Source of the DNA: Flavobacteriales bacterium
GTDB lineage: Bacteria; Bacteroidota; Bacteroidia; Flavobacteriales_F; PHOS-HE28
Length of the DNA: 64,000 bases
Direction of reading: 5' to 3'
NCBI GenBank assembly: GCA_016721825.1
Contig: JADKHI010000001.1
Coordinates: 1,294,808 to 1,358,807, forward strand
Below are positions 9,001 to 46,924 of the stretch, in pieces. The notes beneath the pieces are model-generated. The model saw nothing but the letters and a program-made list of their open reading frames with translations, ran no database searches and was not told where the DNA came from. The position numbers and the translations under genes were made by a program. Numbering within the stretch: the first letter of the stretch is position 1; each line of letters begins with the position of its first letter.

Positions 9001-12000
9001 GGCGGCCACGATGGAAGGCACGGACGTGATGCCCGAAGGCGTGACCACGGTGAACTGAATGGTAGTATCGCAGCCTGCGGCATCCGCGATGGTGACGGTG
9101 TACACGCCGGGGCACAGCCCCGTGGCCGTACCGGTGCCTTGACCACCACCGGGAGGCGGGGCCCAGGTGATCACATAGCCGGGAGTGCCGCCGGTCGGTT
9201 GCACGTTGGCTTCTCCGTCGCAGGCACCACCGCAGCTGGCATTCTCAACGGTCAAGCCCGCATTGATCGGTGCAGGTGCGGTGATGGTGAACGCGATCGT
9301 GGTGTCGCAACCCAGCGCATCCGCGATCGTGAGCGTGTAGTTGCCAGCGCAAAGGCCGGTCGCGTTCGGTGTGCCTTGTCCGCCACCGGGGGCAGGTGAC
9401 CAGGCATAGGTATAGTTCGGCGTTCCACCCGTAACCGCTGCGGTCGCGCTGCCATCACAACTGTTCCAGCAGAGCGCTGCGGTCGTCGTCAGGCTGGCAT
9501 CGATCGGTGGCGGTTGGTCGATGGTGAAGCTGAGCGTGGTGTCGCAACCGCCACTGGTGATGGTCACCTGGATGTTCCCTGCGCACAGACCAAGCGCTTG
9601 TGCCGTGCCTTGTCCGTTGGAAGGGACCGGTACCCACAGATAGGTATAGGTGCCGTTGCCACCCGTAGGCGCCAGCACAACGGTGCCGTTGCAGGTTCCC
9701 GGACACACCGCATCCGTGACCACCGCGTTCGGCGCGATCGGCGTTGGAGCCGTGATGGTGAAGGAGATCGTGGTGTCGCAGTTCACCGCATCGGTAACGG
9801 TGAGCGAATAGGCTCCGGGGCAGAGGCCGGTAACGTTCGCCGTGCCTTGACCAGCGCCAGGAGCAGGTGACCATAGATAGGTATAGCCCGCAGTGCCACC
9901 GGTCACGATCACACCGGCCGTTCCATCGCACACATCGGGACAGCTCGCAGGTGTGATCTGAAGCGACAACTGCAACGGCACCGGCGCGGTGATGGTGAAG
10001 GGTACCGTGAGCGTGCACCCGCGCGAGTCCGTCACCAGCACACTGTAGGCACCAGCGCAAAGGCCGGTCGCATCAGGCGTGCCCTGTCCACCACCCGGAG
10101 CAGGCGACCATGCATAGGTGTAGTTCGGTGTGCCACCAGCGATCACCACCGAGGCCGTTCCATCGCAGTTGGTGCCGCAGGTCACGTTGGTGCTTGTGGA
10201 GGTCTGCGTAAGAGGTGGTGGCTCCAGAATGAGGAACTGCACCGTCGTATCGCAGCCGTTGGCGTCGGTGATCGTGGCGGTCCATGGGCCGGCGCACAGT
10301 CCGCTGGCCGTTGGTGTGCCTTGGCCGGCAGGAGGTACGGGGCTCCAGAGGTAGGTATATGGGCCAACGCCACCGGTCGGCGCACAGGTCGCTGTTCCAT
10401 CACAAGCACCGGCGCAGGTCACGTCGGTCTGGCTCTCGTTCGGCAGGATCGGCGGTGGCGCGTTGATCGTGAACGCAACGGTGGTGTCGCAACCCGAAAC
10501 GTCAGTGATGGTGACGCTCCATGGGCCCGGACACAATCCACTGACCGATGGTGTCCCCTGCCCCACCGGCGGGTTCGGTGTCCATAGATAGGTATACGGG
10601 CCAACGCCTCCGGTCACCACCAGGATCACGCTGCCATCGCATTCACCCGCGCAGCTTGCATCGGTGATCGTGAGCTGCGGATCGAGCGCCGTGGGTGATG
10701 AGATCGTGATGTTGACGAGCGTGTCACAACCACTGGCCTGATCGGTGATCAGCACCGTGTAGTTGCCCGCGCAGAGGCCCGTGACCGAACCGGTTCCCTG
10801 CCCACCACCGGGCGCAGGTGACCACAGGAACGTGTACGGACCAACAGCTCCAGAGGGCGCTACCGTGGCCGTGCCATCGCACTGGTTCGCGCACGAAACA
10901 TCTGTGTGGCTGCTGTTCGGAACGATCGGCGGTGGCTGTGTGATCTGGAAGGTTAGCGTGGTGTCACAACCGTTCGCATCGTTGATCGTCACGCTCCATG
11001 GACCCGAGCACAGTCCGCTCACGTTCGTTGTGCCTTGTCCGACAGGTGGAACGGGCGCCCATGTATAGGTATAGGTGCCGGTGCCCCCTGTCACCACCAC
11101 CTCGGCTTCGCCATCGCAGCCACCGTTGCAGGTGGCATTGGTCACCGTGAGCACTGGGGCCACCGGCTGAAGCGGGATGATGAAGGTGGTGTCGAAGAGG
11201 CAGTTGTTCTGGTCGCGGATCTCCAGGGTGTTCGTTCCGGCGCAGAGCTGGTTGAAGGAAGATCCGGTGCCAGCGCCATTGTTCCAGTTGAAGGTGTAAC
11301 CACTGCCCGTGCCGCCTACGGCCAACGCGTTACCGGTGCCGTCGCAGGTCTGCGCACAGCTGGGGGGTGTGAGCGCAGGGAAGAAGATGACGCCGACAGG
11401 AGGCGGACCCAGCACCTGCACCGTGGCCGCACAGCCGATGTTCTGTCCTTGGTCCGTAACGATCACCAGCTTGTTGCCCACACAGGTGTTCGACCAGGTC
11501 TGCGTGTTCGGACCGGTGGACCACGAATACACGAAAGGCCCCACCCCACCGGTCACCGATACGGTCACCGTCGCATCGCAGGAACCCGTGCAGCTCACGT
11601 TGAAGCCGTTGTAGTTCGTAAGCACCTGCGCGTTGATGGTGAAGGGCGTTTGACCAGGCCCCGTGCCGCAGACGGAGATGCCGCGAGCAGCCGCAGCAGG
11701 CCGCGTGGCCAGCGCACCCCAAGGCATGTCCACGCCGCGCACCAACAGGTGCGAAGCGCCGGGGTCAACAACACTGCGCACGCCACCCGCATCGAATGAA
11801 CGCAGCGCTTCGATCACCGAGCCACCAGCGATCAGCGACTTGCGGCCATTGCCAGCGAAACGCATGTCGCCGCAGACCACATGGTTGTCGTTGGTCACCA
11901 AGGTTCCTTCCTTCAATATGAGCGTACGATCGGCAGCGAGCTTCAGGTCGCTTAGCAGGTTCCAGCCGCCGGATCCATCGATCATCACATCACCCTTCAA

Positions 12001-23774: not shown

Positions 23775-25883
23775 TCAACGCACTTCGGCGCCCGGGGCAA
23801 TAATGTCCTTGGGCTGCACGAACACGAGCTTGCCCGCGCTGTCCTCGGCCATCAGCACCATGCCCTGGCTTTCGACACCGCGCATCTTGCGGGGTTCGAG
23901 ATTGGCCACCAGCACGACCTGCTGACCGACCAGTTCCTCCGGCGCGTAGTGCATGGCAATGCCGCTGACAACGGTTCGTGGTGACGCTTCACCCAGGTCC
24001 ACGGCGAGCTTCAGCAGCTTGTCGGCCTTGGGCACGCGCTCGGCGGCAGTGATGGTGCCCACGCGCAGGTCGAGCTTCGCGAAATCGTCGAAGGTGATGT
24101 TGGGCTTGGCAACAGGGGCAGGAACAGGAGCCGGACCAGGGGCAGGACCAGGGGCGGGAGCAGGGGCTGCTTGTTGAGGCTCCATGGCGTGCAGGCGTTC
24201 CACTTCCACGGCGATCTCTTCGTCGGTAATGGGCTTGAAGAGGTGCTCGGCTTTGCCCAGCGCCTGGCCTTCGCCTACGAGGTCACTGCGGAAGGCCTGG
24301 TCCCACGGCAGCGCGTTGATGCCGAGCATGCGGCGCAGCTTCTGCGCGGTGAAGGGCAGGAAAGGCTCCAGCACGATGCTGAGCGTGGCCGCGATGTTCA
24401 GACTGTTGGCCAGGATGGTGCGGGTGCGGACCGGATCGGTCTTCTCCAACTTCCACGGCTCGTTGTCGCTGAGGTACTTGTTGCCGGCGCGCGCCACGTT
24501 CATGGCACTGCTCAGCGCATCGCGGAAGCGGAAGTGGTCGATGTGCCTCGCCACCTCTTCCACGTTGCCGTGCACGGCGCTCCACAGGTCCATATCCAGG
24601 TCCGAGCGTTCACCGGCCGCCGGTGCGTTGCCGCCGTAGTACTTGTGGCAGAGCACGAACACGCGCTGCACGAAGTTGCCGAGGATGGCGACCAGCTCGT
24701 TGTTGTTCTTGTCCTGAAAGTCCTTCCACGTGAACTCGCTGTCGCGGAACTCGGGGATGATGGTGGCCAGTGCGTAGCGCAGCTCATCCTGGCGATCGGG
24801 CCAACGCTCGATGTACTCGTGCAACCAAACAGCCCAGTTGCGGCTGGTGCTGATCTTGCGGCCTTCGAGGTTGAGGAACTCGTTCGCGGGCACGTTCTGT
24901 GGAAGCACGTAGCCGCCGTGCAACTTCAGCAGGATCGGGAAGATGATGCAGTGGAAAACGATATTGTCCTTGCCGATGAACTGCACCAGGCGTGTGTCGT
25001 CGTTCTTCCACCACTTCTGCCAATCCTCGCCCTTGTCCTTCGCCCATTGCTTGGTGGCGCTGATGTAGCCGATGGGCGCATCGAGCCATACGTAGAGCAC
25101 CTTGCCTTCTGCACCGGGCAATGGCACGGGCACGCCCCAATCCAGGTCGCGCGTCATCGCACGGGGACGCAGACCGTCCTTCAACCAGCTGTTGCATTGG
25201 CCCAGTACCTGTGGCTTCCATTCGCCCGCGTCGTGGTGCTTCACACCGTCGAGCATGCCGGTGTTGATCCACTCATCCACCCATTGCTGGCTGCGCTCCA
25301 TGGGCAGGTACCAGTGCGTGGTGGGCCGCAGCACGGGCTTGGCACCGCTGAGGGTGCTGCGCGGATCGATCAGGTCCTTCGGGCTCAACGCGCTGCCGCA
25401 CTTCTCGCATTGGTCGCCGTAGGCATCGGGGTTGGCGCAGGTGGGGCAGGTGCCCATGATGTAGCGGTCCGCCAGGAACTGCTTCGCCTCCTCGTCGTAG
25501 TACTGCTGCTCCTCCTGTTGGGTGAAGGCGCCGTTCTCGTTCAGCTTGAGAAAGAAGCCCTGGCTGGTCTCCTTGTGCAGCTCGCTGCTGGTGCGGTGGT
25601 AGATGTCGAAGTGGATGCCGAAGTCCTGAAAGGCCTTGCCCATCAACGCGTGGTACTTGTCCACGATGGCGCGCGGGGTGGTGCCTTCCTTCAGCGCGCG
25701 GATGGTGATGGCCGCCCCATGCTCATCGCTGCCGCACACGAAGAGCACGTCCTTGCCGCGCTGGCGCAGGCTGCGCACGTAGATGTCCGAAGGCAGGTAG
25801 GCCCCGGCAATGTGGCCGATGTGCAGGGGGCCGTTGGCGTAGGGCAGGGCGGCGGTAACGGTGTGGCGGGCGGGTTCCTTCAC
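23775..25883 (-). CDS. metG: Methionine--tRNA ligase with a C-terminal EMAP/tRNA-binding domain
   Basis: TAALPYANGPLHIGHIAGAYLPSDIYVRSLRQRGKDVLFVCGSDEHG carries the HIGH motif. Zinc knuckle: CPTCANPDAYGDQCEKCG. C-terminal tRNA-binding domain: DLRVGTITAAERVPKADKLLKLAVDLG...LVANLEPRKMRGVESQGMVL. Confidence 0.95.
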   Translation of the reverse strand: MKEPARHTVTAALPYANGPLHIGHIAGAYLPSDIYVRSLRQRGKDVLFVCGSDEHGAAITIRALKEGTTPRAIVDKYHALMGKAFQDFGIHFDIYHRTSSELHKETSQGFFLKLNENGAFTQQEEQQYYDEEAKQFLADRYIMGTCPTCANPDAYGDQCEKCGSALSPKDLIDPRSTLSGAKPVLRPTTHWYLPMERSQQWVDEWINTGMLDGVKHHDAGEWKPQVLGQCNSWLKDGLRPRAMTRDLDWGVPVPLPGAEGKVLYVWLDAPIGYISATKQWAKDKGEDWQKWWKNDDTRLVQFIGKDNIVFHCIIFPILLKLHGGYVLPQNVPANEFLNLEGRKISTSRNWAVWLHEYIERWPDRQDELRYALATIIPEFRDSEFTWKDFQDKNNNELVAILGNFVQRVFVLCHKYYGGNAPAAGERSDLDMDLWSAVHGNVEEVARHIDHFRFRDALSSAMNVARAGNKYLSDNEPWKLEKTDPVRTRTILANSLNIAATLSIVLEPFLPFTAQKLRRMLGINALPWDQAFRSDLVGEGQALGKAEHLFKPITDEEIAVEVERLHAMEPQQAAPAPAPGPAPGPAPVPAPVAKPNITFDDFAKLDLRVGTITAAERVPKADKLLKLAVDLGEASPRTVVSGIAMHYAPEELVGQQVVLVANLEPRKMRGVESQGMVLMAEDSAGKLVFVQPKDIIAPGAEVR

Positions 25884-25920: not shown

Positions 25921-26140
25921 GTGCAGTTGACAGTAGGCAGGGGCAGGTGGCAGGAGCAGGTGGCAGGTGGCAGGAGCAGTTGGCAGGTGGCAGGAGCAGG
26001 GATGTGCGGCAGCGGAGCTTTCTTCTTCCGGGCCACAGGCCATGGGCTGCGAGCTTCGGGCCACGAGCTTGTTCTCGGCAGCGGAGCGTTCTTCATCTGT
26101 GGGCAGTGGGCAGTTGACAGTGCGCAGTTGGCAGTTGAAG
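25921..26140 (+). repeat. Mosaic intergenic repeat element, copy R1 (modules G-A-J-B-J-C-G)
   Basis: GGCAGG-type tandem array at 25937-26000. Two copies of the GCGGCAGCGGAGC..TTCTTC junction motif. GGGCCACGAGCT-type array at 26028-26070. GCAGTTG array at 26103-26140. The core matches 40449-40542 reverse-complemented. Confidence 0.8.
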
Positions 26141-35616: not shown

Positions 35617-35994
35617 AGCTGTATTGCAGGTAAGTTATCCAGAATTCTATGAAGTCATTCCCCCTCCGACGCTCGGGTGTCCCGGGTGTGTTACGCTCGC
35701 ACCCATCCGCTTGCCGCTCAATAACTCGCCGCTTACATTCGGACAGGAGGGCGAAGGAGCGCCCGACCACAACAGTTGAAAGGCCCAAAGGCTCAGTAGC
35801 CAGCGTCGCAATTCGAGTAAAGCAAAGCTCGTGGCTCAGGGCTCGGGGCCAATGGACGAAGGAGCAAGCTCCGCTGACGTAGACCAACTCGCCGCTAGCC
35901 GCTCAATACCTCGCCGCTAAAGAATGAGGCAAGCTCCGCGTCCATTGCGTATGTTCGATGAGCGAGATCACAGTTGCACACGAATGCCAAGGTC

Positions 35995-36957
35995 ATGAAA
36001 AGCGCTCTATTCCTTCTTAGCACCCTGCTCGGCTTAGGAACCTACGGACAGAACCTAGTTCCGAACGGCAGCTTCGAACAGTACACTGGCTCCTGTCAGT
36101 TCGGTGTTGGATACGCTAACATGTATGATTGGGTCCGGCCAGATTGTGGTCAATGGCCGGGTTTCGGACATGCTTGCAACAATGGGCTCGGCAATGGTTC
36201 TGGAACCCCGCAAGGTGGCTTGGGATATCAAGAACCAGTTGAGGGTGTTGGCTATGCAATGCTTTGGACATTGCGGATGAATTCCCAGTTATACCCGGAC
36301 GGGAACCCTCAGGTCTATGTCTCTGTGGATTTGACAACACCACTGGTTGCCGGCCAGCGCTATTGCATGCGCTTCTACGCGAACCTCGTCGATTCGGCGA
36401 GCTACAAGACCACAGCTCTGCATGCCTTGTTCTGGTATGGTGTACCAAGTGCATGCAACCAAGCAGATTCCACATGGGACGACCAAGCACAGATCACCTT
36501 TGACATAACCGATGTTGACACGATGAACTGGAAGCTCCTTGAAGGATCCTTCGTGGCCAATGGAGGTGAAGTGAACTTGACGATCGGCTCGTTCCTATTC
36601 GACAGTGAGATCATCAGTACATTTTTAGGGAGTCATCCGATCCATGGCGATAATGCTCTGTATTTGATCGATGATGTCTGGGTGTGGGCCTGCGAAGTCG
36701 GTGTAGAGGAGCACACCAATGATCGCCTGCGCCTGTACCCGAACCCGGCTACGGACCTGGTGCGGATCGCGTTGAACGCCGGTGAGGAAATGGGTACCGT
36801 GAGCGTGCTGGATGTGCAGGGCCGCACGGTGCTTCAGCAGGCCTTCCGAGGCGTGCAAGCGGAGCTGGATGTTTCCGGCTTGAGCAGTGGTGCATACGTG
36901 GTGCAACTGCGCACGGAGCGTTCGGTGTTGTCGGCGCCGTTGCAGGTGGTGCGGTAG
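35995..36957 (+). CDS. T9SS type A sorting domain-containing protein, tandem paralog 1
   Basis: Start at MKSALFLLSTLLGLGTYGQNLVPNGSFEQ. The C-terminus LRLYPNPATDLVRIAL...VLDVQGRTVLQQ...SGAYVVQLRTERSVLSAPLQVVR is a type A sorting domain. The N-terminal two thirds diverge from paralogs 2 and 3 and are less GC-rich. Confidence 0.8.
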   Translation: MKSALFLLSTLLGLGTYGQNLVPNGSFEQYTGSCQFGVGYANMYDWVRPDCGQWPGFGHACNNGLGNGSGTPQGGLGYQEPVEGVGYAMLWTLRMNSQLYPDGNPQVYVSVDLTTPLVAGQRYCMRFYANLVDSASYKTTALHALFWYGVPSACNQADSTWDDQAQITFDITDVDTMNWKLLEGSFVANGGEVNLTIGSFLFDSEIISTFLGSHPIHGDNALYLIDDVWVWACEVGVEEHTNDRLRLYPNPATDLVRIALNAGEEMGTVSVLDVQGRTVLQQAFRGVQAELDVSGLSSGAYVVQLRTERSVLSAPLQVVR

Positions 36958-37108
36958 TTCGTTCCGAGGATTGGGTGACTCGCGTGCGTCACGCTCTTAC
37001 CCATCCGCTAGCCGCTCAAGAACTCGCCGCTAGAGGAATGAGGCAAGCTCCGCGTCCATTGCGTATGTTCGATGAGCGAGATCACTGTTGCACACGAATG
37101 CCAAGGTC

Positions 37109-38068
37109 ATGAAAAGCGCTCTATTCCTTCTTAGCACCTTGCTCGGCTTAGGAACCTACGGACAGAACCTGGTGCCCAACGGCAGTTTCGAGCAGTTCAC
37201 GACGAACTGCAATTTCGGCCTTCAATACTCGATGTTACAGGACTGGGTCTATCCAGATTGCGCTTCTAGTCCCGGGTTAGCTCATGCATGCAACCCGCTT
37301 GCCGGTGTTCCACATAGTGGTTATGGATTCCAAGAGGCCCACAGCGGTGATGCGTTCATTGTCCTTTGGACCCTGAGCATGAACTCTCAGGGTGGTTTCC
37401 CTGATGGCAACCCACAGATGTATGCGAATATCGATCTGAACCAACAGCTTGTAGCGGGCCAGCACTATTGCCTCCGGTTGTGGATGAACATGGCCGATTC
37501 ATCATGCTATCGCACCAGTGCCTTCCATGCCTTCCTGTGGTACGGAACGCCCACGGTGTGCAACTACCAGGATACCGCATGGGACACGTACGCGGCGGTG
37601 ACCTTCGACATCAGTGCGGTGGATACCGCAGGTTGGACCTTGCTGGAAGCCGGGTTCGAGGCCAGTGGTGGCGAGAGCAACCTGACGCTCGGTGCTTTTC
37701 AAACGCTGGACGAGATCGACAGTGTCTTCATCGCGGACCATAGCAATGCGCTTGGGGCCCTACTGGCCGCATATTTCATTGATGACGTGGAGCTGTGGGC
37801 ATGCGAAGTCGGCGTGGAAGAGCATGCCAACGATCGACTGCGCTTGTACCCGAACCCGGCTACGGACCTGGTCCGGGTCGCGTTGAACGCCGGAGAGGAA
37901 ACAGGTACCGTGAGCGTGCTGGATGTGCAGGGGCGCGTGGTGCTTCAACAGGCCTTCCGAGGCGTGCAAGCGGAGCTGGATGTTTCCGGCTTGAGCAGTG
38001 GTGCGTATATGGTGCAGCTGCGCACAGAGCGTTCGGTGTTGTCGGCGCCGTTGCAGGTGGTGCGGTAG
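37109..38068 (+). CDS. T9SS type A sorting domain-containing protein, tandem paralog 2
   Basis: It has the same signal peptide and C-terminal domain as paralog 1. It is nearly identical to paralog 3 from about codon 120 onward. Confidence 0.8.
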   Translation: MKSALFLLSTLLGLGTYGQNLVPNGSFEQFTTNCNFGLQYSMLQDWVYPDCASSPGLAHACNPLAGVPHSGYGFQEAHSGDAFIVLWTLSMNSQGGFPDGNPQMYANIDLNQQLVAGQHYCLRLWMNMADSSCYRTSAFHAFLWYGTPTVCNYQDTAWDTYAAVTFDISAVDTAGWTLLEAGFEASGGESNLTLGAFQTLDEIDSVFIADHSNALGALLAAYFIDDVELWACEVGVEEHANDRLRLYPNPATDLVRVALNAGEETGTVSVLDVQGRVVLQQAFRGVQAELDVSGLSSGAYMVQLRTERSVLSAPLQVVR

Positions 38069-38219
38069 TTCGTTCCGAGGATTGGGTGTCCCGCGTGCGT
38101 CACGCTCTTACCCATCCGCTAGCCGCTCAAGAACTCGCCGCTAGAGGAATGAGGCAAGCTCCGCGTCCATTGCGTATGTTCGATGAGCGAGATCACTGTT
38201 GCACACGAATGCCAAGGTC

Positions 38220-39191
38220 ATGAAAAGCGCTCTATTCCTTCTTAGCACCTTGCTCGGCTTAGGAACCTACGGACAGAACCTGGTGCCCAACGGCAGTTTC
38301 GAGCAGTTCACGACGAACTGCAATTTCGGCCTTGGCTACAATAGTTTGCAGGATTGGACAGATCTGGATTGTGCAGCAAGTCCCGGTTTAGCGCATGCGT
38401 GCAATAACAGCTTGGGCAATGGCAGCGGAGTGCCTCAAGGGGGGCTTGGGTATCAAGTCAGTCACAGTGGCGATGGGTTTATGATGGTATCGACTTTGGT
38501 CATGAATAGCCAGGGTGGCTTCCCGGATGGCAACCCACAGGCTTATGCGAATGTCGACCTGACGCAACCGCTGGTGGCGGGCCAGCACTATTGCCTACGG
38601 TTGTGGATGAACATGGCCGATTCATCATGCTATCGCACCAGTGCCTTCCATGCCTTCCTGTGGTACGGAACGCCCACGGTGTGCAACTACCAGGATACCG
38701 CATGGGACACGTACGCGGCAGTGACCTTCGACATCAGTGCGGTGGATACCGCAGGTTGGACCTTGCTGGAAGCCGGGTTCGAGGCCAGTGGTGGCGAGAG
38801 CAACCTGACGCTCGGTGCTTTTCAAACGCTGGACGAGATCGACAGTGTGTTCATCGCGGACCATAGCAATTTGTTTGGGGCCCTGGTGGCTGCATATTTC
38901 ATTGATGACGTGGAGCTGTGGGCCTGCGAGGTCGGCGTGGAGGAGCATGCCAACGATCGACTGCGCTTGTACCCGAACCCGGCTACGGACCTGGTGCGGA
39001 TCGCGTTGAACACGGGTGAAGAAGCTGGTACGGTAAGCGTGCTGGATGTGCAGGGCCGCACGGTGCTTCGGCAAGCCTTCCGAGGTGTGCAAGCGGAGCT
39101 GGATGTTTCCGGCTTGAGCAGTGGTGCGTATATGGTGCAGCTGCGCACAGAGCGTTCGGTGTTGTCGGCGCCGTTGCAGGTGGTGCGGTAG
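38220..39191 (+). CDS. T9SS type A sorting domain-containing protein, tandem paralog 3
   Basis: It has the same signal peptide and C-terminal domain. Its N-terminal patch is a mosaic of paralog-1-like and paralog-2-like sequence. Confidence 0.8.
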   Translation: MKSALFLLSTLLGLGTYGQNLVPNGSFEQFTTNCNFGLGYNSLQDWTDLDCAASPGLAHACNNSLGNGSGVPQGGLGYQVSHSGDGFMMVSTLVMNSQGGFPDGNPQAYANVDLTQPLVAGQHYCLRLWMNMADSSCYRTSAFHAFLWYGTPTVCNYQDTAWDTYAAVTFDISAVDTAGWTLLEAGFEASGGESNLTLGAFQTLDEIDSVFIADHSNLFGALVAAYFIDDVELWACEVGVEEHANDRLRLYPNPATDLVRIALNTGEEAGTVSVLDVQGRTVLRQAFRGVQAELDVSGLSSGAYMVQLRTERSVLSAPLQVVR

Positions 39192-39351
39192 TGGCGGAGG
39201 AAGCACGTGCAGTAGATCCGGTGCGTCCATTTCTGCGCGCCAGCGGCCCAAGATCTGGGCACCACGCAGTTCCCTTCAGTGGCATCACGGCTTGCTCCTC
39301 GCCAAGGCGACCCTCTATTTTCCGGAGTATAAGTGAACCATCACCCCCCCA

Positions 39352-40097: not shown

Positions 40098-40660
40098 GGC
40101 TCGCAGGCTCGCTGGGGGTTAACCGCAGATGACGCAGAGCACGCAGATGAAATGGCGGCATAGCGAAGGCTCGCTGGCTCGCTGGAGTTTAGAACCACAG
40201 ATGAACGCAGATGCACACAGATGGAATTCTGAGCGCGCGATGGTTGAGCTCGCAGGCTCGCTAGTTGAACCACAGATGGCACAGATGGCCGCAGATGAAA
40301 TGGCGGCATGGTAGGGGCTCGCAGGCTCGCTAGTGGTGAACCACGGATGGACACGGATGAACACAGATGGAAATACCTAGAGCGATGAACGGGGTTCGCT
40401 GGCTCGCTGGGTGCTAACCACGGATGGACACGGATGCACACGGATACTGATAAGAGCTTGCTGCCGAAAACAAGCTCGCGGCCCGAAGCTCGAAGCTCGT
40501 GGCCGCAGCTGAAGAGGAAAGCTCCGCTGCCGCACATCCCTCTTGCCGCTAGCCGCTGGCCAACTCGCCGCTCCTGCCCTTGCTCCTGCTCCTTCCAACT
40601 GCCCCTGCCCCTGCCCCTGCCCCTGCTCCCGCGCCTGCTCCTGCCCCCGCCCCTGCCCCC
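40098..40660 (-). repeat. Mosaic intergenic repeat element, copy R3 (largest copy; forward orientation on the minus strand)
   Basis: Five tandem 68-79 bp units start at 40098, 40168, 40247, 40315 and 40393. Each is GGCTCGCWGGCTCGCT plus three CRCRGATG units. They are followed by modules J, B, J, F and an 89-bp C-rich A module (40572-40660). Confidence 0.85.
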
Positions 40661-40740: not shown

Positions 40741-43428
40741 ATGAGGGTCAGGGCCTTGCGGCTGCGGGATACTTTGCGCATCGTGCCCATTCTGCGCAAG
40801 CTCCGCAAGGTGCTCCTGATCTCCGTTGGGGTCGTGGTGCTGCTGTTCGGCGCCCTGATGGGCCTCGCCTACGCCTACGAGGATAAGGTGTTGGCGGTGT
40901 TGCGCGACGAGCTGAACGCCCACCTGACCACCCCCGTGCAGGTGGCCGGCATGGAGCTCACCCTGATCAAGCGTTTCCCCCAGGCCAGCCTCAGGCTCAC
41001 CAACGTGATGGCCTTGGAGGCCCGGCGCGACAGCCTGCCTGCCGACACCCTCCTTTACGCCGGTGACCTCTACCTGGAGTTCGGCCTCTTCGACCTGCTG
41101 GGCGGCGACTACACCATCAAGCAGGTACACGGCCAGGATGTGCGGCTCTACCCCGGGCTGGACGCGGATGGCCTGGGCAACTGGACCATCTGGAAGACCG
41201 ACAGCACCGCCAGCAGCAGCACGGCCTTCGCGCTGAACAAGGTGACCTTCGACGACCTGGTGGTGCGCTACCGCGATGCGCGCAGCGAACTGGAGATCCT
41301 GACCACGAGCCCCGACCTGGCCTTGAGCGGCCGCTTCAAGCCCGAAGGCAGCACCACCACGTTGCGTGGCCGCGCCACCTTGTTGCACTGGACCGAGAAG
41401 GGCAACGACGTTCTGAACGACCGCAGCGCCCAACTGGCTCTGGAGCTGGCGTTCGGGGGAAGCGACGGCGGCTTCCACATCACCAAGGGCGAAGTGCTCA
41501 CTGGCGATGTACCGCTGAACGTGACACTGGACGTAACACCCGGACCGAAGGGCGAAGCGCTGGACCTGAAGGCCAACGGACTGGGGCTCGACCTAGCCGA
41601 TGTGGTGCAACTGCTGCCCGAGGTGGCCGTGAAGAAACTGCGCCGCTATGGCATGGAAGGTGACGCCGACCTCGCCTTGCACTACCGCGGTGTCATTGCC
41701 GAAGGGCTCGCGCTGAGCGCCGGGTTGAAGGTGCGCGATGGGCGGATGAAGGAGCAGCGCAGCGGCACCGTGTTCAAGAACATCAACGGCGAATTCGCGG
41801 TGGACCTGCGGCCCGATGGCACACCGACCAAGCTTGTGGTGAAGGGCTTCAGCGCCCAGGCCGCCAGTGGCACCGTGAGCGGTTCGCTGGACATGCAGGG
41901 CCTCGCCAACGCCAAGGTGAAGCTGGACCTGAAGGCCAACATCGCCCTGGCCGACCTGCTGCGTTTCGCCCAGGTGGATACGCTGGAACAAGTGCAAGGC
42001 ACCCTCGTCGCCGACGCCCATGCCGTGGGGAAACTGCGTGACGTCAGCGACATCCGTGCGGCGGACCTGCGGGCTCTGACCTTGAGCGGTACCGGTCGCC
42101 TGAGCGGCGCCAGTTTGAAGCTGAAAGGCGTGCGCCACCGCCTGACCGACCTGGACGCGCAGCTCGCCCTGAAAGGCAACGACGCCACCGTGAGCGGCCT
42201 TACCGCCAGCGTGCAGGGGCAAGCCATCCAACTGGATGGTTCCCTGCGGAACCTGATGCCTTATCTGCTCTTCAAGGACCAGCGCCTGGCCATCGACGCG
42301 CGGCTCGTGTCGCCCTCGTTGGACCTTGCGGCGTTGCTGCATGAAGAGGGTGGCGCGCAGGGCACCGACTATGCACTCGTGCTGCCCACCCTGATCGACC
42401 TCGACCTGCAGGCCGACATCGCGCAGCTCGCTTTTGAGGACTTTCGCGCCGAACGCATCCACACCAAGTTGCGCTTGCACGACCAGGTGCTGAGCGCCGC
42501 GCCCCTCACCTTCGGCACAGCAGGCGGCACGGTGGTCGCGGACCTGGAGCTGGACGGTCGATCCGCGCAGGCCTATCCGCTGGCCGTGAACGCCTCGGTG
42601 AAGGGCATGGACATCAGCGCCTTCTTCAAGGAGTTCCAGGATTTCGGGCAGACCTTCATCGGCCACAAGAACCTGAAGGGCACCACGCACGCGCAGATCG
42701 CCTTCGCCGCGCCGCTGAGCCCCGCGCTGCAGATCGATCAGGACCGCATGGTTTGCGTGCTCGACCTGGGCATCGACAAGGGCGAACTGATCGGCCACCA
42801 GCCGCTGATCGACGTGGCGGACTACCTACGCAGCAACAAGCTCGTGTCGCCCTTCGTGGACACCGACGAACTGCGGAAGCGCCTGGCGCACGTCACCTTC
42901 AGCGACCTCGACAACCAGATCGAGATCCGCGACCGCACGGTCTTCATCCCCAACATGCTCGTGCACAGCAGCGCCATGGACATTGAGGTGAGCGGCTCGC
43001 AGACCTTCGCCGGCGGCATCGACCACCACCTCAACTTCCGCCTGAGCGACCTGTTCCGCAAGAACAGCGGCGAGGACGAGTTCGGCCCCGTGGTGGACGA
43101 CGGCACCGGCATGCGTGTGTTCCTGCACATGTACGGCACCACCGCCGACCCACAGTTCGCCAACGATGGCGCCATGGCCAGCGCACGCCGTAAGCAGCAG
43201 CTGAAGCAGGAGACCGCTACGTTGAAGAACATCCTGCGCGAAGAATTCAGCGGCGCGGGCGAACGCACCAGCACCCCGAACACCGCCACCCCGCAGCCCA
43301 GCTTCACTGTGGAATGGGACGGCACCGACAGCACCACCACCGCCCTGCCGCCCCCACCGAAACGCCGCAAAGGCCTGGGCCGCTTGCTGAGCGAGGAAGA
43401 GGAGAAGCCGGTGATCACTGTTGAGTAA
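40741..43428 (+). CDS. AsmA family outer-membrane assembly protein
   Basis: The real start is MRVRALRLRDTLRIVPILRKLRKVLLISVGVVVLLFGALMGLAYAY (N-terminal TM anchor) at 40741. The long beta-rich body and the C-terminal region (DIEVSGSQTFAGGIDHHLNFRLS) are typical of AsmA-like proteins. The upstream part of the track ORF is translated repeat. Confidence 0.75.
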   Translation: MRVRALRLRDTLRIVPILRKLRKVLLISVGVVVLLFGALMGLAYAYEDKVLAVLRDELNAHLTTPVQVAGMELTLIKRFPQASLRLTNVMALEARRDSLPADTLLYAGDLYLEFGLFDLLGGDYTIKQVHGQDVRLYPGLDADGLGNWTIWKTDSTASSSTAFALNKVTFDDLVVRYRDARSELEILTTSPDLALSGRFKPEGSTTTLRGRATLLHWTEKGNDVLNDRSAQLALELAFGGSDGGFHITKGEVLTGDVPLNVTLDVTPGPKGEALDLKANGLGLDLADVVQLLPEVAVKKLRRYGMEGDADLALHYRGVIAEGLALSAGLKVRDGRMKEQRSGTVFKNINGEFAVDLRPDGTPTKLVVKGFSAQAASGTVSGSLDMQGLANAKVKLDLKANIALADLLRFAQVDTLEQVQGTLVADAHAVGKLRDVSDIRAADLRALTLSGTGRLSGASLKLKGVRHRLTDLDAQLALKGNDATVSGLTASVQGQAIQLDGSLRNLMPYLLFKDQRLAIDARLVSPSLDLAALLHEEGGAQGTDYALVLPTLIDLDLQADIAQLAFEDFRAERIHTKLRLHDQVLSAAPLTFGTAGGTVVADLELDGRSAQAYPLAVNASVKGMDISAFFKEFQDFGQTFIGHKNLKGTTHAQIAFAAPLSPALQIDQDRMVCVLDLGIDKGELIGHQPLIDVADYLRSNKLVSPFVDTDELRKRLAHVTFSDLDNQIEIRDRTVFIPNMLVHSSAMDIEVSGSQTFAGGIDHHLNFRLSDLFRKNSGEDEFGPVVDDGTGMRVFLHMYGTTADPQFANDGAMASARRKQQLKQETATLKNILREEFSGAGERTSTPNTATPQPSFTVEWDGTDSTTTALPPPPKRRKGLGRLLSEEEEKPVITVE

Positions 43429-43429
43429 G

Positions 43430-43694
43430 TGTCAAGGGTCAAGTAGCAAGGGACAAGTGACAAGAGGCTTCGGGCCATGAGCTGCGAGCCACGAGCTTAT
43501 TTGCGGCAGCAGAGCCCTCCTCATCTGTGTCCATCCGTGTTCATCTGTGGTTTATTCAACGCCGGCAGCGCGCTTGCGCGCGGTTCCATCTGTGGCCATC
43601 ATATCGCGCGCAGGCACAGGCAGTGCAGTTCATCTGTGTCCATCTGCGTCCATCTGTGGTTAAGTCTCTCGGAAGGAACTGCGAGCCTGCGAGC
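43430..43694 (+). repeat. Mosaic intergenic repeat element, copy R4 (modules E-B-J-C...C-D)
   Basis: GTGTCAAGGGTCAAGTAGCAAGGGACAAGTGACAAG (E). CTTCGGGCCATGAGCTGCGAGCCACGAGCTT (B). TTGCGGCAGCAGAGCCCTCCTCATC (J). CATCTGTGTCCATCCGTGTTCATCTGTGGTT appears twice (C). GCGAGCCTGCGAGC (D). Confidence 0.8.
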
Positions 43695-43799
43695 AACGCG
43701 TCCTATGCGGTTCAGCATTCCTGCCGTTCCCGGCTTTCTCCGCGCCTCAGCGTCTCTGCTGCCAACCAATGAACGCCTCCGATCACCGATCTTCACCCC

Positions 43800-45305
43800 G
43801 TGGACCTCTATTCCCGTAAGCAACGTTGGAAGCTGGTGCTGGCCTTGATCGCCATGGCGATCGTGGGGGCCTCGCTGTGGTACAGCAACCGCATTGTGAG
43901 CAAGGTGCGGCAGGAGGAACGCAAAAAGGTGGAGCTCTGGGCCGAAGCGGTGAAGAGCCGCGCCCAGCTCGTCAACTACACCGACTCGCTCTTCCACCGC
44001 CTGCGCGATGAGGAACGCAAGAAGGTGGAGCTCTGGGCCGAAGCCATGGGCCGCCTGGTGAGCAGCGACCAGACCGACCTGAGCTTCTACCTGAAGGTGG
44101 CCAGCGACAACACCACCATCCCCGTGGTGATCACCGATGCCAGCGGTCGCTTCGGGCCCAACCGCAACCTCGACAGCCTGATCACGCGCGACACCACCGC
44201 CCTGCGACAGGAAGTGCTGACCATGGACAGCCTGCACGAGCCCATCGTCATCAACGTGTTCGCCGACCAGAAGCAATACCTCCATTACAAGGACTCGCGG
44301 CTGGTGACGGAACTCCAGGAGGTGATGGACGGCATCATCAGTTCCTTCATCAGCGAAACGGTGATGAGCACCGCCGTGGTGCCGGTGATCTACACCGACA
44401 GCACACGCACCCGCATCATCGAGTACGGCCACATCGACAGCCTTGTGGTGGCGGACAGCGCGGCCATGCAGGCGCGCATCCGCTCCATGGCCCAGGCCAA
44501 CAAGCCCATCGCCATCGACCTGCCGGGCAAGGGCCGCAACTACATCTTCTACGAGGAGTCTTTGGTGATCACGCAGCTGCGCTACTTCCCCTATGTGCAG
44601 CTGGTGATCCTTGGCCTGTTCCTCATCGTGGCCTACGCGCTCTTCAGCCTGTTCCGCAACGCCGAGCAGAATCAGGTGTGGGTGGGCATGGCGAAGGAGA
44701 CCGCGCACCAGCTCGGCACGCCGCTCAGCTCGCTGATGGCCTGGATGGAACTGTTGAAGAGCAGGGGCGTCGACCCTTCCGCCGTTACGGAGATGAAGAA
44801 GGACGTGGACCGCCTGGAGGTGATCACCGAGCGCTTCAGCAAGATCGGCTCCGCACCGGACCTCACACCCGAGAAGCTCTACCACACTTTGCGCGCCACG
44901 GTGCTCTACCTGCGGCCCCGTCTTCCTTCCCGCGTGAAGATCGAAGTGGTGACACCGGAGGATACCGAGCGCACCGTGCCCTTGAACCGCTCGCTCTTCA
45001 GTTGGGTGCTGGAGAACCTGGTGCGCAACGCCATCGATGCCATGGAGGGCGAAGGCAGCCTCACCATCGAGATCGTCCCCGAAGGTCCCGAGGTACACAT
45101 CGACATCACCGACACCGGCAAGGGCATTCCGACGGCCCAGTTCCGCACCGTTTTCCAGCCGGGCTTCACCACCAAGAAACGCGGCTGGGGTCTCGGCCTC
45201 TCGCTCAGCAAACGCATCATCGAGCAATACCACGGCGGGCGGATCTTCGTGAAGCGGAGCGCGCCGGGCAAGGGGACGACGTTCAGGATCACGCTTAACG
45301 CTTGA
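43800..45305 (+). CDS. Sensor histidine kinase (membrane-anchored, HisKA plus HATPase_c)
   Basis: GTG start with N-terminal TM WKLVLALIAMAIVGASLWY and a second TM VQLVILGLFLIVAYALFSLF. H-box: ETAHQLGTPLSSLMAWMELL. N/G boxes: LVRNAIDAM, DTGKGIP, GWGLGLSLSKRII. Confidence 0.85.
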   Translation: MDLYSRKQRWKLVLALIAMAIVGASLWYSNRIVSKVRQEERKKVELWAEAVKSRAQLVNYTDSLFHRLRDEERKKVELWAEAMGRLVSSDQTDLSFYLKVASDNTTIPVVITDASGRFGPNRNLDSLITRDTTALRQEVLTMDSLHEPIVINVFADQKQYLHYKDSRLVTELQEVMDGIISSFISETVMSTAVVPVIYTDSTRTRIIEYGHIDSLVVADSAAMQARIRSMAQANKPIAIDLPGKGRNYIFYEESLVITQLRYFPYVQLVILGLFLIVAYALFSLFRNAEQNQVWVGMAKETAHQLGTPLSSLMAWMELLKSRGVDPSAVTEMKKDVDRLEVITERFSKIGSAPDLTPEKLYHTLRATVLYLRPRLPSRVKIEVVTPEDTERTVPLNRSLFSWVLENLVRNAIDAMEGEGSLTIEIVPEGPEVHIDITDTGKGIPTAQFRTVFQPGFTTKKRGWGLGLSLSKRIIEQYHGGRIFVKRSAPGKGTTFRITLNA

Positions 45306-45306
45306 T

Positions 45307-45795
45307 CAGGGGCAGGGCCAGGACCAGGGGCATTGAACCTCCGTATCATTTCGTCCGCTTTAGCTTTCGTGAAAACGAACCAACAATGGCAGGCTTCAAG
45401 GACATGTCCATCTACAAGAAAGCGTTCGAAATGGCACGCATGGTGTTCACACTGAGCAAACGCTTTCCGAGCGAAGAGAAGTTCTCACTTACCGATCAGG
45501 TGCGGCGTTCGTCGAGATCGGTGACCGCTCAATACGCCGAGGGCTATCGCAAGAAGCGCTACCCGGCCCATTTCATTTCAAAGATGACCGATGCGGACGG
45601 CGAGAACGCCGAAACGCAAGTGTGGTTAGACCATGCCGTGGCCTGTGGCTACGTCACAGAGAATGATATCGCCCCCATCCTCAAAGTCTCCGAAGAAGTT
45701 GGACGCATGCTTGGGGACATGATCGAGAACCCCGAGAAATACGTTGGCAAGCGGCCCTAAAGGGATCACTTGCCCCTGCGCCTGCTCCTGCCCCT
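45307..45795 (+). mobile_element. Candidate cassette: four-helix-bundle gene bracketed by about 25-bp imperfect inverted repeats of the GGCAGG module
   Basis: The left end is AGGGGCAGGGCCAGGACCAGGGGCA (45308-45332). The reverse complement of the right end (45771-45795) is AGGGGCAGGAGCAGGCGCAGGGGCA, a 21/25 match. The cassette fills the whole gap between the kinase stop (45305) and the hemW start (45800). Its interior is less GC-rich than the flanks. Confidence 0.4.
45386..45760 (+). CDS. Four-helix-bundle protein (23S rRNA intervening-sequence protein family; Avd-like fold)
   Basis: MAGFKDMSIYKKAFEMARMVFTLSKRFPSEEKFSLTDQVRRSSRSVTAQYAEGYRKKRY...ETQVWLDHAVACGY matches the conserved pattern of this family. 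Confidence 0.8.
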   Translation: MAGFKDMSIYKKAFEMARMVFTLSKRFPSEEKFSLTDQVRRSSRSVTAQYAEGYRKKRYPAHFISKMTDADGENAETQVWLDHAVACGYVTENDIAPILKVSEEVGRMLGDMIENPEKYVGKRP

Positions 45796-45799
45796 AACT

Positions 45800-46924
45800 A
45801 TGTCCGGCCTGTATCTCCATATCCCCTTCTGCCGGAAGGCCTGCACGTACTGTGACTTCCACTTCAGCACGTCACTGCAGACCAAGCCCGCAGTGCTGGA
45901 GGCGATGCACGCCGAGCTGGCCCAACGCGCTGCAGAACTCAACGGCGCTACTGTCGAGACCATCTACTTCGGCGGCGGCACACCGAGCCAGCTAACCGAC
46001 GCGGAACTGAAGGCATTCATCGACCAAGCACGAACGCTCTTCACCCTAACGCCCGATGCGGAGGTGACGATGGAAGTGAATCCGGATGACGTGGATGCGG
46101 AACAGCTGGCGGTCTGGAAGTCCATCGGCATCACACGCCTCAGCATCGGTGTGCAGAGCTTTCGCGAAGAGCGCTTGCAGTTCATGGGCCGCGCGCACGA
46201 TGCCGCGCAAAGCCGCGAGAGCCTGCGCCTGATCAGCGCCGCCGGGTTCGCGTCGTGGACGATGGACCTGATCTACGGGCTGCCGGGCATGACCATGGAC
46301 GAGTGGAACGAACAGCTCGACACCGCCCTCTCCTTCGCGCCGCCGCACATCAGCGCCTACTGCCTTACGGTGGAAAGCAAAACCGCGCTGGACCACCAGG
46401 TGAGCAAGGGCCTCGTGACCATGCCCGGTGATGCGGACCAGGCCGCGCAGTTCGAACGCTTGATCGAACGTCTGGAAGGCGCCGGATACGTGCAGTACGA
46501 GATCAGCAACTTCGGCCAACCGGGCCACTTCAGCCGCCACAACAGCAGCTACTGGAAAGGGGTGCCTTATCTAGGCATCGGCCCTTCCGCGCACTCGTAC
46601 AACGGCACCAAGCGCCGCTGGAACGTGTCCCACAACCTGCGCTACGCCCAGGGCATCAGCGCCGGAACGACCTACTGGGAAGAAGAGACCCTGACACCCG
46701 TGCAGGTCACCAACGAAGCCCTGCTCACCGGCCTGCGCACCAGCTGGGGCGTGGACCTGTCAGCGCTGCCTTTGGACCTGCTGGAGGCCCGTTCACCGAC
46801 CGTGGTGCATTATCGGTCGCAGGGGCTGTTGGAGCACAGCGATGGGCGGTTAGTTTTGACAAAGGCGGGGCGTGCCTTCGCGGATCGCATCGCCAGCGAC
46901 CTGTTCCTCACCGATGATCGCTGA
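45800..46924 (+). CDS. hemW: Radical SAM family heme chaperone HemW
   Basis: MSGLYLHIPFCRKACTYCDFHF carries the CxxxCxxC radical SAM motif. Also IYFGGGTPS and the HemN-like C-terminal domain. Confidence 0.9.
   Translation: MSGLYLHIPFCRKACTYCDFHFSTSLQTKPAVLEAMHAELAQRAAELNGATVETIYFGGGTPSQLTDAELKAFIDQARTLFTLTPDAEVTMEVNPDDVDAEQLAVWKSIGITRLSIGVQSFREERLQFMGRAHDAAQSRESLRLISAAGFASWTMDLIYGLPGMTMDEWNEQLDTALSFAPPHISAYCLTVESKTALDHQVSKGLVTMPGDADQAAQFERLIERLEGAGYVQYEISNFGQPGHFSRHNSSYWKGVPYLGIGPSAHSYNGTKRRWNVSHNLRYAQGISAGTTYWEEETLTPVQVTNEALLTGLRTSWGVDLSALPLDLLEARSPTVVHYRSQGLLEHSDGRLVLTKAGRAFADRIASDLFLTDDR

Follow-up and report, generated by a model that had tools for sequence, protein, structure and literature searches.

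A four-helix-bundle gene between complementary tandem-repeat arms as a probable inserted cassette at the kinase–hemW junction of a Flavobacteriales genome

Described systems and the kinase–hemW unit

Genes for small four-helix-bundle proteins of the PF05635/TIGR02436 family were first found in the 1990s inside 23S rRNA intervening sequences (IVS) and are multi-copy in many Bacteroidota and Cyanobacteria; to our knowledge, neither a function nor a means of dispersal has been assigned to the family since. An IVS is defined by its location in the 23S rRNA gene, where it replaces the tip of helix 9, 25 or 45 (helix 45 in Coxiella burnetii), and examples bearing an open reading frame (ORF) are known from Leptospira and C. 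burnetii. The subject here is the only four-helix-bundle gene of a 64-kb window (the whole stretch of DNA analysed, 64,000 nucleotides from contig JADKHI010000001.1 of a Flavobacteriales bacterium), which stands between a sensor histidine kinase gene and hemW and is enclosed by two inverted arms of hexamer repeats (Table 1). It is very probable that arms and ORF together form an inserted, horizontally exchanged cassette, and we lean slightly towards the fuller statement that this inserted cassette also forms an RNase III-cut panhandle in read-through RNA; the RNase III panhandle taken by itself, which is argued by analogy with the IVS, is put forward tentatively.

The IVS of Coxiella measures 428–444 nt, and its termini form a 28-bp stem; it is cleaved by RNase III, contains an S23p ORF and is lower in GC than the genome (PMC4990558). 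Tandem heptamers, varying in copy number between strains, lie 5' of this ORF, which is probably unexpressed and expendable, and the sporadic distribution of such sequences suggests horizontal transfer (PMC4990558). The unit in the window resembles the IVS in its cargo, which belongs to the same family (PF05635 is named after it), in its size (488 nt), in complementary termini with a stem of ~22–25 bp, in a GC content under that of its host, in short tandem repeats 5' of the ORF, and in sense orientation within the host transcript and sporadic distribution. It differs in lying between two protein-coding genes, outside the defining location (an Rfam search of 43300–46300 found no rRNA and no other significant family), in arms built as hexamer arrays (G-rich 5' of the ORF, C-rich 3' of it), and in an ORF that is under strong purifying selection (dN/dS ~0.04). 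RNase III processing is known in Coxiella, whereas for the window unit it is proposed by analogy.

The spacer between the kinase stop codon (TGA, 45303–45305) and the hemW ATG (45800) covers 45306–45799, or 494 bp, and consists, in order, of 2 nt, the G-rich arm, a leader, the ORF, a trailer, the C-rich arm and 4 nt. A repeat finder returned the arms as a 25-nt inverted pair, 84% (21/25) complementary and 438 nt apart; with the arms included, the cassette unit occupies 45308–45795 (488 bp), flanked by TGATC on the left and AACTATG on the right, and has a GC content of ~0.51–0.57 (0.54 for the gene) against ~0.63 for the flanks. Coordinates, repeat finder and GC content thus bear out the original prediction, made from the sequence, of a 494-bp gap with a 375-bp gene of lower GC and ends matching at 21 of 25 positions in inverted orientation. 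That prediction also had the spacer filled by exactly three parts; the arms and the gene stand, and the count becomes five with the 53-nt leader and the 10-nt trailer. The leader is conserved within one type of cassette (type A: the window, L011, L105 and L113) and is different in a second, type B.

The motif AGGGGCAGG occurs eight times in the window against 0.8 expected, a count reached by none of 100 shuffles, and is found at 25939, at 40604–40624 on the minus strand and in both arms; GGCAGG arrays are few in the window, and two of them flank its four-helix-bundle gene. The ends of the unit had been taken to be shared with an intergenic mosaic family, and the repeat unit is indeed common to the mosaics at 25930–26000 and 40560–40660; the similarity is one of units only, and the empty sites of relatives described below have no such arrays.

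Profile matches place the 124-aa product in the family (100.9 bits against PF05635, cutoff 33.8; 94 bits against TIGR02436, cutoff 24), and the closest solved structures are 2RLD and the pentameric XCC0516 (2GSC). The homologue Avd, of the diversity-generating retroelements (DGR), is a cofactor that binds nucleic acid and reverse transcriptase. The predicted homology to Avd holds at the level of fold and family (37.3 bits and E = 4e-9 against PF22296, cutoff 40; 35.5 bits and E = 9e-9 against NF033474, cutoff 80), but membership among the DGR Avd proteins was rejected, both scores lying under the curated cutoffs. No reverse transcriptase family is among the Pfam assignments of genes up to 10 kb away on either side (L001–L003), where template and variable repeats were not specifically searched for.

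Three further systems invite comparison. Repetitive extragenic palindromes (REP) and their paired forms (REPIN), associated with RAYT transposases of the IS200-like Y1 type, likewise present a small gene between inverted repeats and many gene-less intergenic hairpin copies; the cassette cargo, in contrast, is a non-enzymatic helical bundle or a PD-(D/E)XK protein rather than a Y1 transposase, and the arms are tandem arrays, not a fixed palindrome, whose units differ between cassettes of one genome. A verrucomicrobial contig with a four-helix-bundle cassette (L088) also carries a RAYT-like IS200-like Y1 transposase gene (PF01797, 5178–5552) with REP palindromes inverted at 5000–5060 and 5555–5640, but these repeats are unrelated to the four-helix-bundle arms on the same contig, and a RAYT/REP link was rejected. 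Integron cassettes are similar in that each is small, holds one ORF without a promoter of its own, follows the orientation of an external promoter and is framed by imperfect inverted repeats that fold as hairpins; they have one attC at the 3' end where the present units have two symmetric arms, and the present units, which are single and scattered in ordinary operons, come with no intI, attI or cassette array. As a single, symmetrically armed unit with no integrase among its neighbours, the window unit does not classify as an integron gene cassette.

Cyanobacterial short tandemly repeated repetitive (STRR) sequences are ~7-bp tandem repeats in operon spacers (e.g. hupS–hupL) that can fold into hairpins and for which roles in transcript stability or translational coupling have been proposed (PMC2670836). 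The gene-less array-loop-array hairpins reported below resemble them; the loop of a cassette, however, holds a complete ORF, and the arms of the cyanobacterial four-helix-bundle genes are of the GGGGAGCAG type. We know of no description of STRR hairpins that enclose genes. A literature search, incomplete in its coverage, likewise returned no description of non-rRNA four-helix-bundle or GxxExxY genes bracketed by complementary tandem-array arms.

Inverted arms around related genes, and filled and empty sites

More than 7,400 relatives of the window protein were found at E ≤ 1e-10. The identical protein is confined to the window locus, on contigs of the activated-sludge Flavobacteriales metagenome-assembled genomes (MAGs) GCA_016719255.1, GCA_016714845.1 and GCA_964268635.1 and on many short metagenome contigs, which are ~97–99% identical to the window in DNA and thus conspecific. 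A genome-collection scan with the window protein returned 79 loci, and ~170 related loci were considered in total. Inverted flanks were scored by aligning the sequence upstream of a gene locally with the reverse-complemented sequence downstream of it, with a threshold of at least 30, and the gene calls used in the control comparison and in the orientation counts below came from simple ORF heuristics.

By this measure 61 of the 88 four-helix-bundle or GxxExxY ORFs (69%) have inverted flanks, against 41 of 689 other genes (6.0%) in the same loci, and the inverted score lies well above the direct score in most loci; in keeping with the original prediction, most other copies of the family, examined in relatives, have such flanks. 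All nine close Flavobacteriales relatives (72–91% protein identity) have a GGCAGG- or GGCAGT-type array upstream and a complementary CCTGCC- or ACTGCC-type array downstream, independently of genomic context and of genome GC (0.50–0.68). The density of tandem arrays is 3.9 per kb in the 200 bp next to the gene ends and 0.57 per kb elsewhere, a roughly seven-fold difference, and their polarity is nearly fixed (upstream G-rich 53:4, downstream C-rich 62:5). The inverted arms around the window gene are not a product of chance. It is scarcely credible that two independent arrays of a repeat-rich genome merely came to lie beside an ordinary resident gene: GGCAGG-type arrays do exist away from the gene, in the two mosaics already named and in coding sequence at 24111–24152, but the polarity, the absence of arms from empty sites and the recurrence of the same build in cyanobacteria all speak against such an origin, and the control comparison (69% vs 6% inverted flanks) refutes it.

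The repeat unit varies by lineage while the partner arm stays complementary. Besides GGCAGG and GGCAGT, units of GGAGTT (Pedobacter) and TCAGAAG (a verrucomicrobial contig) were seen, and a second four-helix-bundle subfamily has the units AATGGTTA, GAGATTGATGG and TCAATGGTTATTCAG. In a single genome, arm unit and protein subfamily go together, GGCAG-type arms being those of KMTDADGE-type proteins, and different cassettes of one genome have unrelated units (three cassettes with three units in L022). On cyanobacterial plasmids, four of the five sampled four-helix-bundle genes show the inverted layout.

The remaining array pairs in these loci enclose four-helix-bundle paralogs, GxxExxY genes (three cases) or no gene at all. 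GxxExxY proteins (TIGR04256, PD-(D/E)XK) are small, multi-copy and unrelated to the four-helix-bundle family; those enclosed by inverted arms lie at 4333–4737 of L022, between tandem TACGAAT/ATTCGTA arrays, at 9477–9929 of L065, with CACATAGG-type arms, and at 11396–11803 of L049, within a plain inverted repeat. They appear to be a second cargo on the same vehicle. Gene-less hairpins of the form array-loop-array, with the G-rich arm first, were found in intergenic spacers at L017 2178–2340, L056 8957–9260, L013 48–125 and L027 9705–9937 and 10386–10551.

Searching metagenomes with the kinase yielded 80 orthologous loci, which allow filled and empty sites to be compared. Down to a kinase identity of 48%, hemW commonly comes directly after the kinase, and this adjacency is ancestral; in most relatives the gap measures 5–130 bp and holds neither a four-helix-bundle gene nor a GGCAGG array (L095, L104, L119, L108, L090, L097 and L103). 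The site is filled only in the window species and in L011, L012, L013, L092, L105 and L113, and always with arms, so that no relative was found with the gene at this locus and without module-like ends; on the kinase tree the filled lineages are interleaved with empty ones. A reciprocal pair adds two more comparisons: the site filled in L016 is empty in L018 and that filled in L018 is empty in L016, each empty spacer being ~115 bp long and free of arrays. These three site pairs amount to presence/absence polymorphism at multiple sites, and the empty kinase–hemW junctions, lacking gene and arms alike, agree with the predicted status of the gene and its inverted ends as one discrete inserted unit. 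A unit with its arms has been inserted into a very short kinase–hemW spacer, and closely related units stand at other sites in related genomes.

Copies 72–92% identical occupy at least five different sites, with GGCAG-type arms throughout. The spacer between rho and a DUF4199 gene is a second recurrent site, filled in L014, L015, L017, L175, L177 and L180; in GCA_009612815.1 the kinase–hemW junction is empty (L119) yet the rho–DUF4199 site is filled (L175). The sister cassettes L016 and L018 (87% bootstrap) likewise stand at different sites. That the gene entered a local hairpin already in place was rejected for these sites, as the empty alleles have no GGCAGG arrays (some carry unrelated small hairpins). 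Within the window species, contigs from metatranscriptome and metagenome reads showed no joints skipping the cassette, at low depth.

No target-site duplication was visible by eye at the filled sites inspected, where base-pair resolution is limited; because the empty sites belong to other species, the insertion boundaries cannot be placed to the base, and the arms of filled sites vary in length and register. Neither the cassette nor the 10 kb around the window copy holds a transposase or integrase gene. These results bear on a DNA-level reading that we consider rather unlikely, namely that the arms are terminal inverted repeats (TIRs) recognised by a trans-supplied transposase or recombinase, the cassette a non-autonomous, cargo-carrying element resembling a miniature inverted-repeat transposable element (MITE) or a REPIN, and the gene-less hairpins its deletion derivatives. 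Such an element would account for the presence and absence at three sites with armless empty alleles, for relocation between sites, for exchange breakpoints at the arms, for gene-less hairpins of the same repeat unit in the same genomes (L017 and L056), and for the strand-symmetric mismatch spectrum and duplex energies reported below, as DNA predicts; the RAYT gene between inverted REPs in L088 shows an analogous layout to be present in these loci. It would leave unexplained, however, why filled sites show no duplication and no enzyme is encoded, why the low-complexity arrays of the arms vary from 3 to more than 20 units and share no evident terminal nucleotides, how three unrelated arm units in L022 could be served without several cognate enzymes, and why sense orientation prevails 56:3 unless selection after insertion were strong. 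The original prediction had called the ends TIRs; in the transposon sense that term is not supported for arrays of variable length in which neither defined termini nor a target-site duplication was seen, with no transposase nearby and with unrelated units within one genome.

Several observations on the insertion sites stand apart from these comparisons. The rho–DUF4199 spacer (L014, L015, L017, L175, L177 and L180–L182), just downstream of rho, is a recurrent home of cassettes in several Flavobacteriales lineages that do not form one clade on the protein tree. A distant low-GC Bacteroidetes MAG (L038) has a cassette at 9992–10372 (58% identical) directly upstream of hemW (10460–11590, 40% identical) and no kinase, a placement that may be accidental or may reflect a preference for the 5' region of hemW. 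The kinase–hemW junction is an insertion hot spot in relatives more generally: L100 has, from ~4595 to its end at 4677, an N-terminus that by eye resembles an IS3-family transposase; in L102 an insert of 2 kb (4497–6500) includes a duplicate of the hemW 5' end; L091 and L099 have other small ORFs; and L096 has a 362-bp repeat-rich insert (3640–4003). Small hairpins with repeat units unrelated to GGCAGG occur at the junctions of L109, L110, L111, L101 and L141.

Exchange of the cassette and the role of its arms

The history of the unit is decoupled from that of its flanking genes, as sequence comparison shows at two depths. Within the species the 494-bp spacer differs by 0–1%, against 1–11% for the adjacent 300 bp of kinase and hemW; in L003 a difference-free run (45317–45797) coincides with the arms, and in a wastewater metagenome two flank haplotypes (0 vs 10 and 3 vs 11 differences) collapse into one cassette contig (45207–45810). 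Between species the relation is reversed, with a dS of 1.04–1.08 for the four-helix-bundle gene against 0.27–0.39 for kinase and hemW, or 3–4 times or more. The kinases of L012 and L105 are 98% identical in amino acids (dS 0.11), whereas their cassettes are of two types with 81% protein identity, different leaders and saturated dS, and the two sequences split abruptly right after the kinase stop codon. Bootstrap support was 77% for type A (window, L011, L105 and L113) and 96% for type B (L012, L013 and L092), the trees of the analysis drawing on 124 or 501 residues. The comparisons indicate horizontal exchange or replacement of the unit as a block, with breakpoints at the arms.

Breakpoints of this kind could also be expected if the arms were portable homology, through which cassettes spread or are replaced by homologous recombination or gene conversion, the ORF being copied into pre-existing GGCAGG-mosaic hairpins. 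The replacement of alleles at one site with breakpoints at the arm edges is consistent with this account, as are the existence of empty hairpins of the same unit and of GGCAGG arrays elsewhere in the window, and left arms of the GGCAGG type pair no better with one CCTGCC-type right arm than with another, which makes the arms interchangeable. Nevertheless, the empty alleles at all three compared sites are without such arrays, which rules out arm homology as the route of primary insertion there, and an occupied site could undergo replacement just as well through homology in the conserved flanking genes. We regard the account as unlikely.

The orientation of the cassettes points in another direction. 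In 56 cases the cassette reads in the same direction as both neighbours, in 3 cases it is opposed to both, and a median of ~86 bp separates it from the gene upstream and of ~46 bp from the ORF called downstream; cassettes thus sit sense-oriented inside host gene strings. No sigma-70-type promoter and no intrinsic terminator were predicted in the kinase–hemW spacer, and leaders are not enriched in the Bacteroidetes -7 motif TAnnTTTG, which was present in 3 of 79 against ~2 expected. An internal promoter is accordingly not supported, and an apparent TAGCTTTC box in the type A leaders is not general. In the minimum free energy (MFE) fold of 45296–45806 the arms form a closing stem around the whole ORF (-186.4 kcal/mol, z = -4.7), made up of 10 + 4 + 8 bp with two small internal loops; the arms folded alone gave -46.2 kcal/mol (z = -5.4). 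Each arm is also crossed by sparse contigs from metatranscriptomes.

Co-orientation, the lack of a promoter motif and a build shared with the RNase III-processed IVS together point to a role of the arms at the RNA level, which the original prediction did not consider. The reading that we favour envisages a widespread class of small cassettes, each with a promoterless ORF and a short leader between complementary G-rich 5' and C-rich 3' hexamer arms, that would be transcribed by read-through from the upstream host gene. Since the cassettes are embedded in sense within host transcription units, a read-through transcript would contain both arms, which could pair into a closing stem of ~22 bp, a panhandle with the whole ORF looped out. 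Because the anatomy matches that of the ORF-bearing 23S rRNA IVS, in which genes of the same family are found, we infer that this stem is probably a substrate of RNase III, or that it at least loops the insert out. Cut in this way, the cassette would become a discrete RNA and the host transcript would suffer less damage, and carriers might tolerate the insertion for that reason.

A number of findings weigh against this reading. About 30% of the family ORFs have no clear inverted flanks, and some have others: the copy in L027 (9650–10560) has one complete hairpin on each side, L173 (an Oscillatoria nigro-viridis plasmid, 1300–2060) has G-rich arrays on both sides with a direct score of 132, and in L021 (9983–10500) the flanks are directly repeated and an apparent second copy begins just downstream. 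Close relatives of the window are represented throughout by MAGs or metagenome contigs. The metatranscriptome contigs are few and of low depth, have no strand or end information and are in some cases possibly DNA, and processing sites are not visible in them. RNAduplex energies of sense and antisense flanks tie at 38:38, and mismatches in the aligned arms are of the G:U type in 91 and of the A:C type in 75 cases, a difference that is not significant, with transversions commonest (194); energies and mismatches being strand-neutral, they give no sign of selection for pairing specifically in the sense RNA, and the arm complementarity would be explained just as well by an origin at the DNA level or by templating. 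Cognate and non-cognate arms compared across 13 GGCAG-type cassettes gave no covariation beyond unit type (permutation p = 0.09). An RNase III cut in an mRNA would, moreover, part the kinase from hemW and might harm rather than protect, and pairing alone does not explain why the 5' arm is G-rich and the 3' arm C-rich. The RNA reading is partly compatible with a trans-mobilised TIR, with arm homology and with binding of the arms by the protein.

The last of these would make the arms candidate binding sites of the encoded pentameric protein, for autoregulation or, by analogy with RAYT and REPIN, for hairpin propagation, and we judge it decidedly improbable. The arm unit tracks the protein subfamily within one genome, the protein is under strong purifying selection, and the homologue Avd binds nucleic acid and reverse transcriptase; but an unrelated cargo, the GxxExxY PD-(D/E)XK protein, has the same build, co-inheritance of gene and arms accounts for the correlation without any binding, and the four-helix-bundle protein has no catalytic domain. 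A broader and likewise improbable speculation is that four-helix-bundle and, in parallel, GxxExxY proteins are trans-acting factors of unrecognised hairpin mobile elements, each lineage reading its own arms as RNA or DNA; the gene-less STRR-like hairpins of Bacteroidota and Cyanobacteria would then be non-autonomous derivatives, as REPINs are to RAYTs, and the rRNA IVS a special case within an rRNA helix.

The layout around most sampled family genes in several bacterial phyla offers a concrete handle on the spread of these multi-copy genes. Should the pattern hold, both their dispersal and their function come within reach of testing. In that case the rRNA IVS would be one landing site of a general arms-plus-ORF cassette living mostly in ordinary operons; the intergenic tandem-repeat hairpins of these phyla, cyanobacterial STRRs included, would gain a candidate origin; and the four-helix-bundle and GxxExxY families of small proteins would be tied to one vehicle.

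Feature coordinates, gene calls and other repeats in the window

The features of the spacer and its two host genes are listed in Table 1.

Table 1. Coordinates (positions in the window) of the cassette at the kinase–hemW junction and of the adjoining host genes.
Feature	Coordinates	Strand	Basis or remark
Sensor histidine kinase, upstream host gene	43800–45305	+	Left edge of insertion site; orthologues L011–L013, L090–L169
Left (5') arm, G-rich hexamer array AGGGGCAGGGCCAGGACCAGGGGCA	45308–45332	+	Inverted-pair search; pairs with right arm in MFE fold
Leader, 53 nt, AT-richer	45333–45385	+	Between left arm and ATG; alignment
Four-helix-bundle gene, 124 aa, PF05635/TIGR02436, S23p/Avd-like fold family	45386–45760 (375 bp including stop)	+	Profile matches
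Trailer, 10 nt	45761–45770	+	Between gene stop and right arm
Right (3') arm, C-rich array TGCCCCTGCGCCTGCTCCTGCCCCT	45771–45795	+	Inverted-pair search; ends 4 nt before hemW ATG
hemW, radical-SAM haem chaperone, downstream host gene	45800–46924	+	TIGR00539, 266.6 bits; right edge of insertion site

Arms of this kind can be mis-called as coding sequence and can thus inflate gene calls, a point of relevance to annotation. A mechanical ORF list starts hemW at TTG 45770 and reads through the right arm ('MPLRLLLPLT...'), whereas the homologues start at ATG 45800 (MSGLYLHIPFC). ORF callers also read the intergenic mosaics of the window as protein, as in a TTG-started ORF at 40543 whose CCTGCC array becomes a 'PCPCPCPC' N-terminus. 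Three such mosaics (25930–26140, 40100–40660 and 43430–43700) are built of the short tandem units GGCAGGTG/GGCAGGAG, GGGCCACGAGCT, CAGATGNACA/CATCTGTG and GGCTCGCTGG, and those at 25.9 kb and 40.5 kb have modules in common, in inverted orientation and 14.6 kb apart. The GGCAGG-like array in minus-strand coding sequence at 24111–24152 encodes a Pro/Ala-rich linker, AAPAPAPGPAPGPAPVPAPVAKP, before what by eye resembles a tRNA-binding domain; not every match to the GGCAGG-type module (module A of the original prediction) is an intergenic repeat. Further along, at 35892–39192, lie three tandem paralogues with Por_Secre_tail domains (sorting by the type IX secretion system, T9SS), whose internal repeats are ~90–94% identical and whose copy structure varies slightly between conspecific MAGs.

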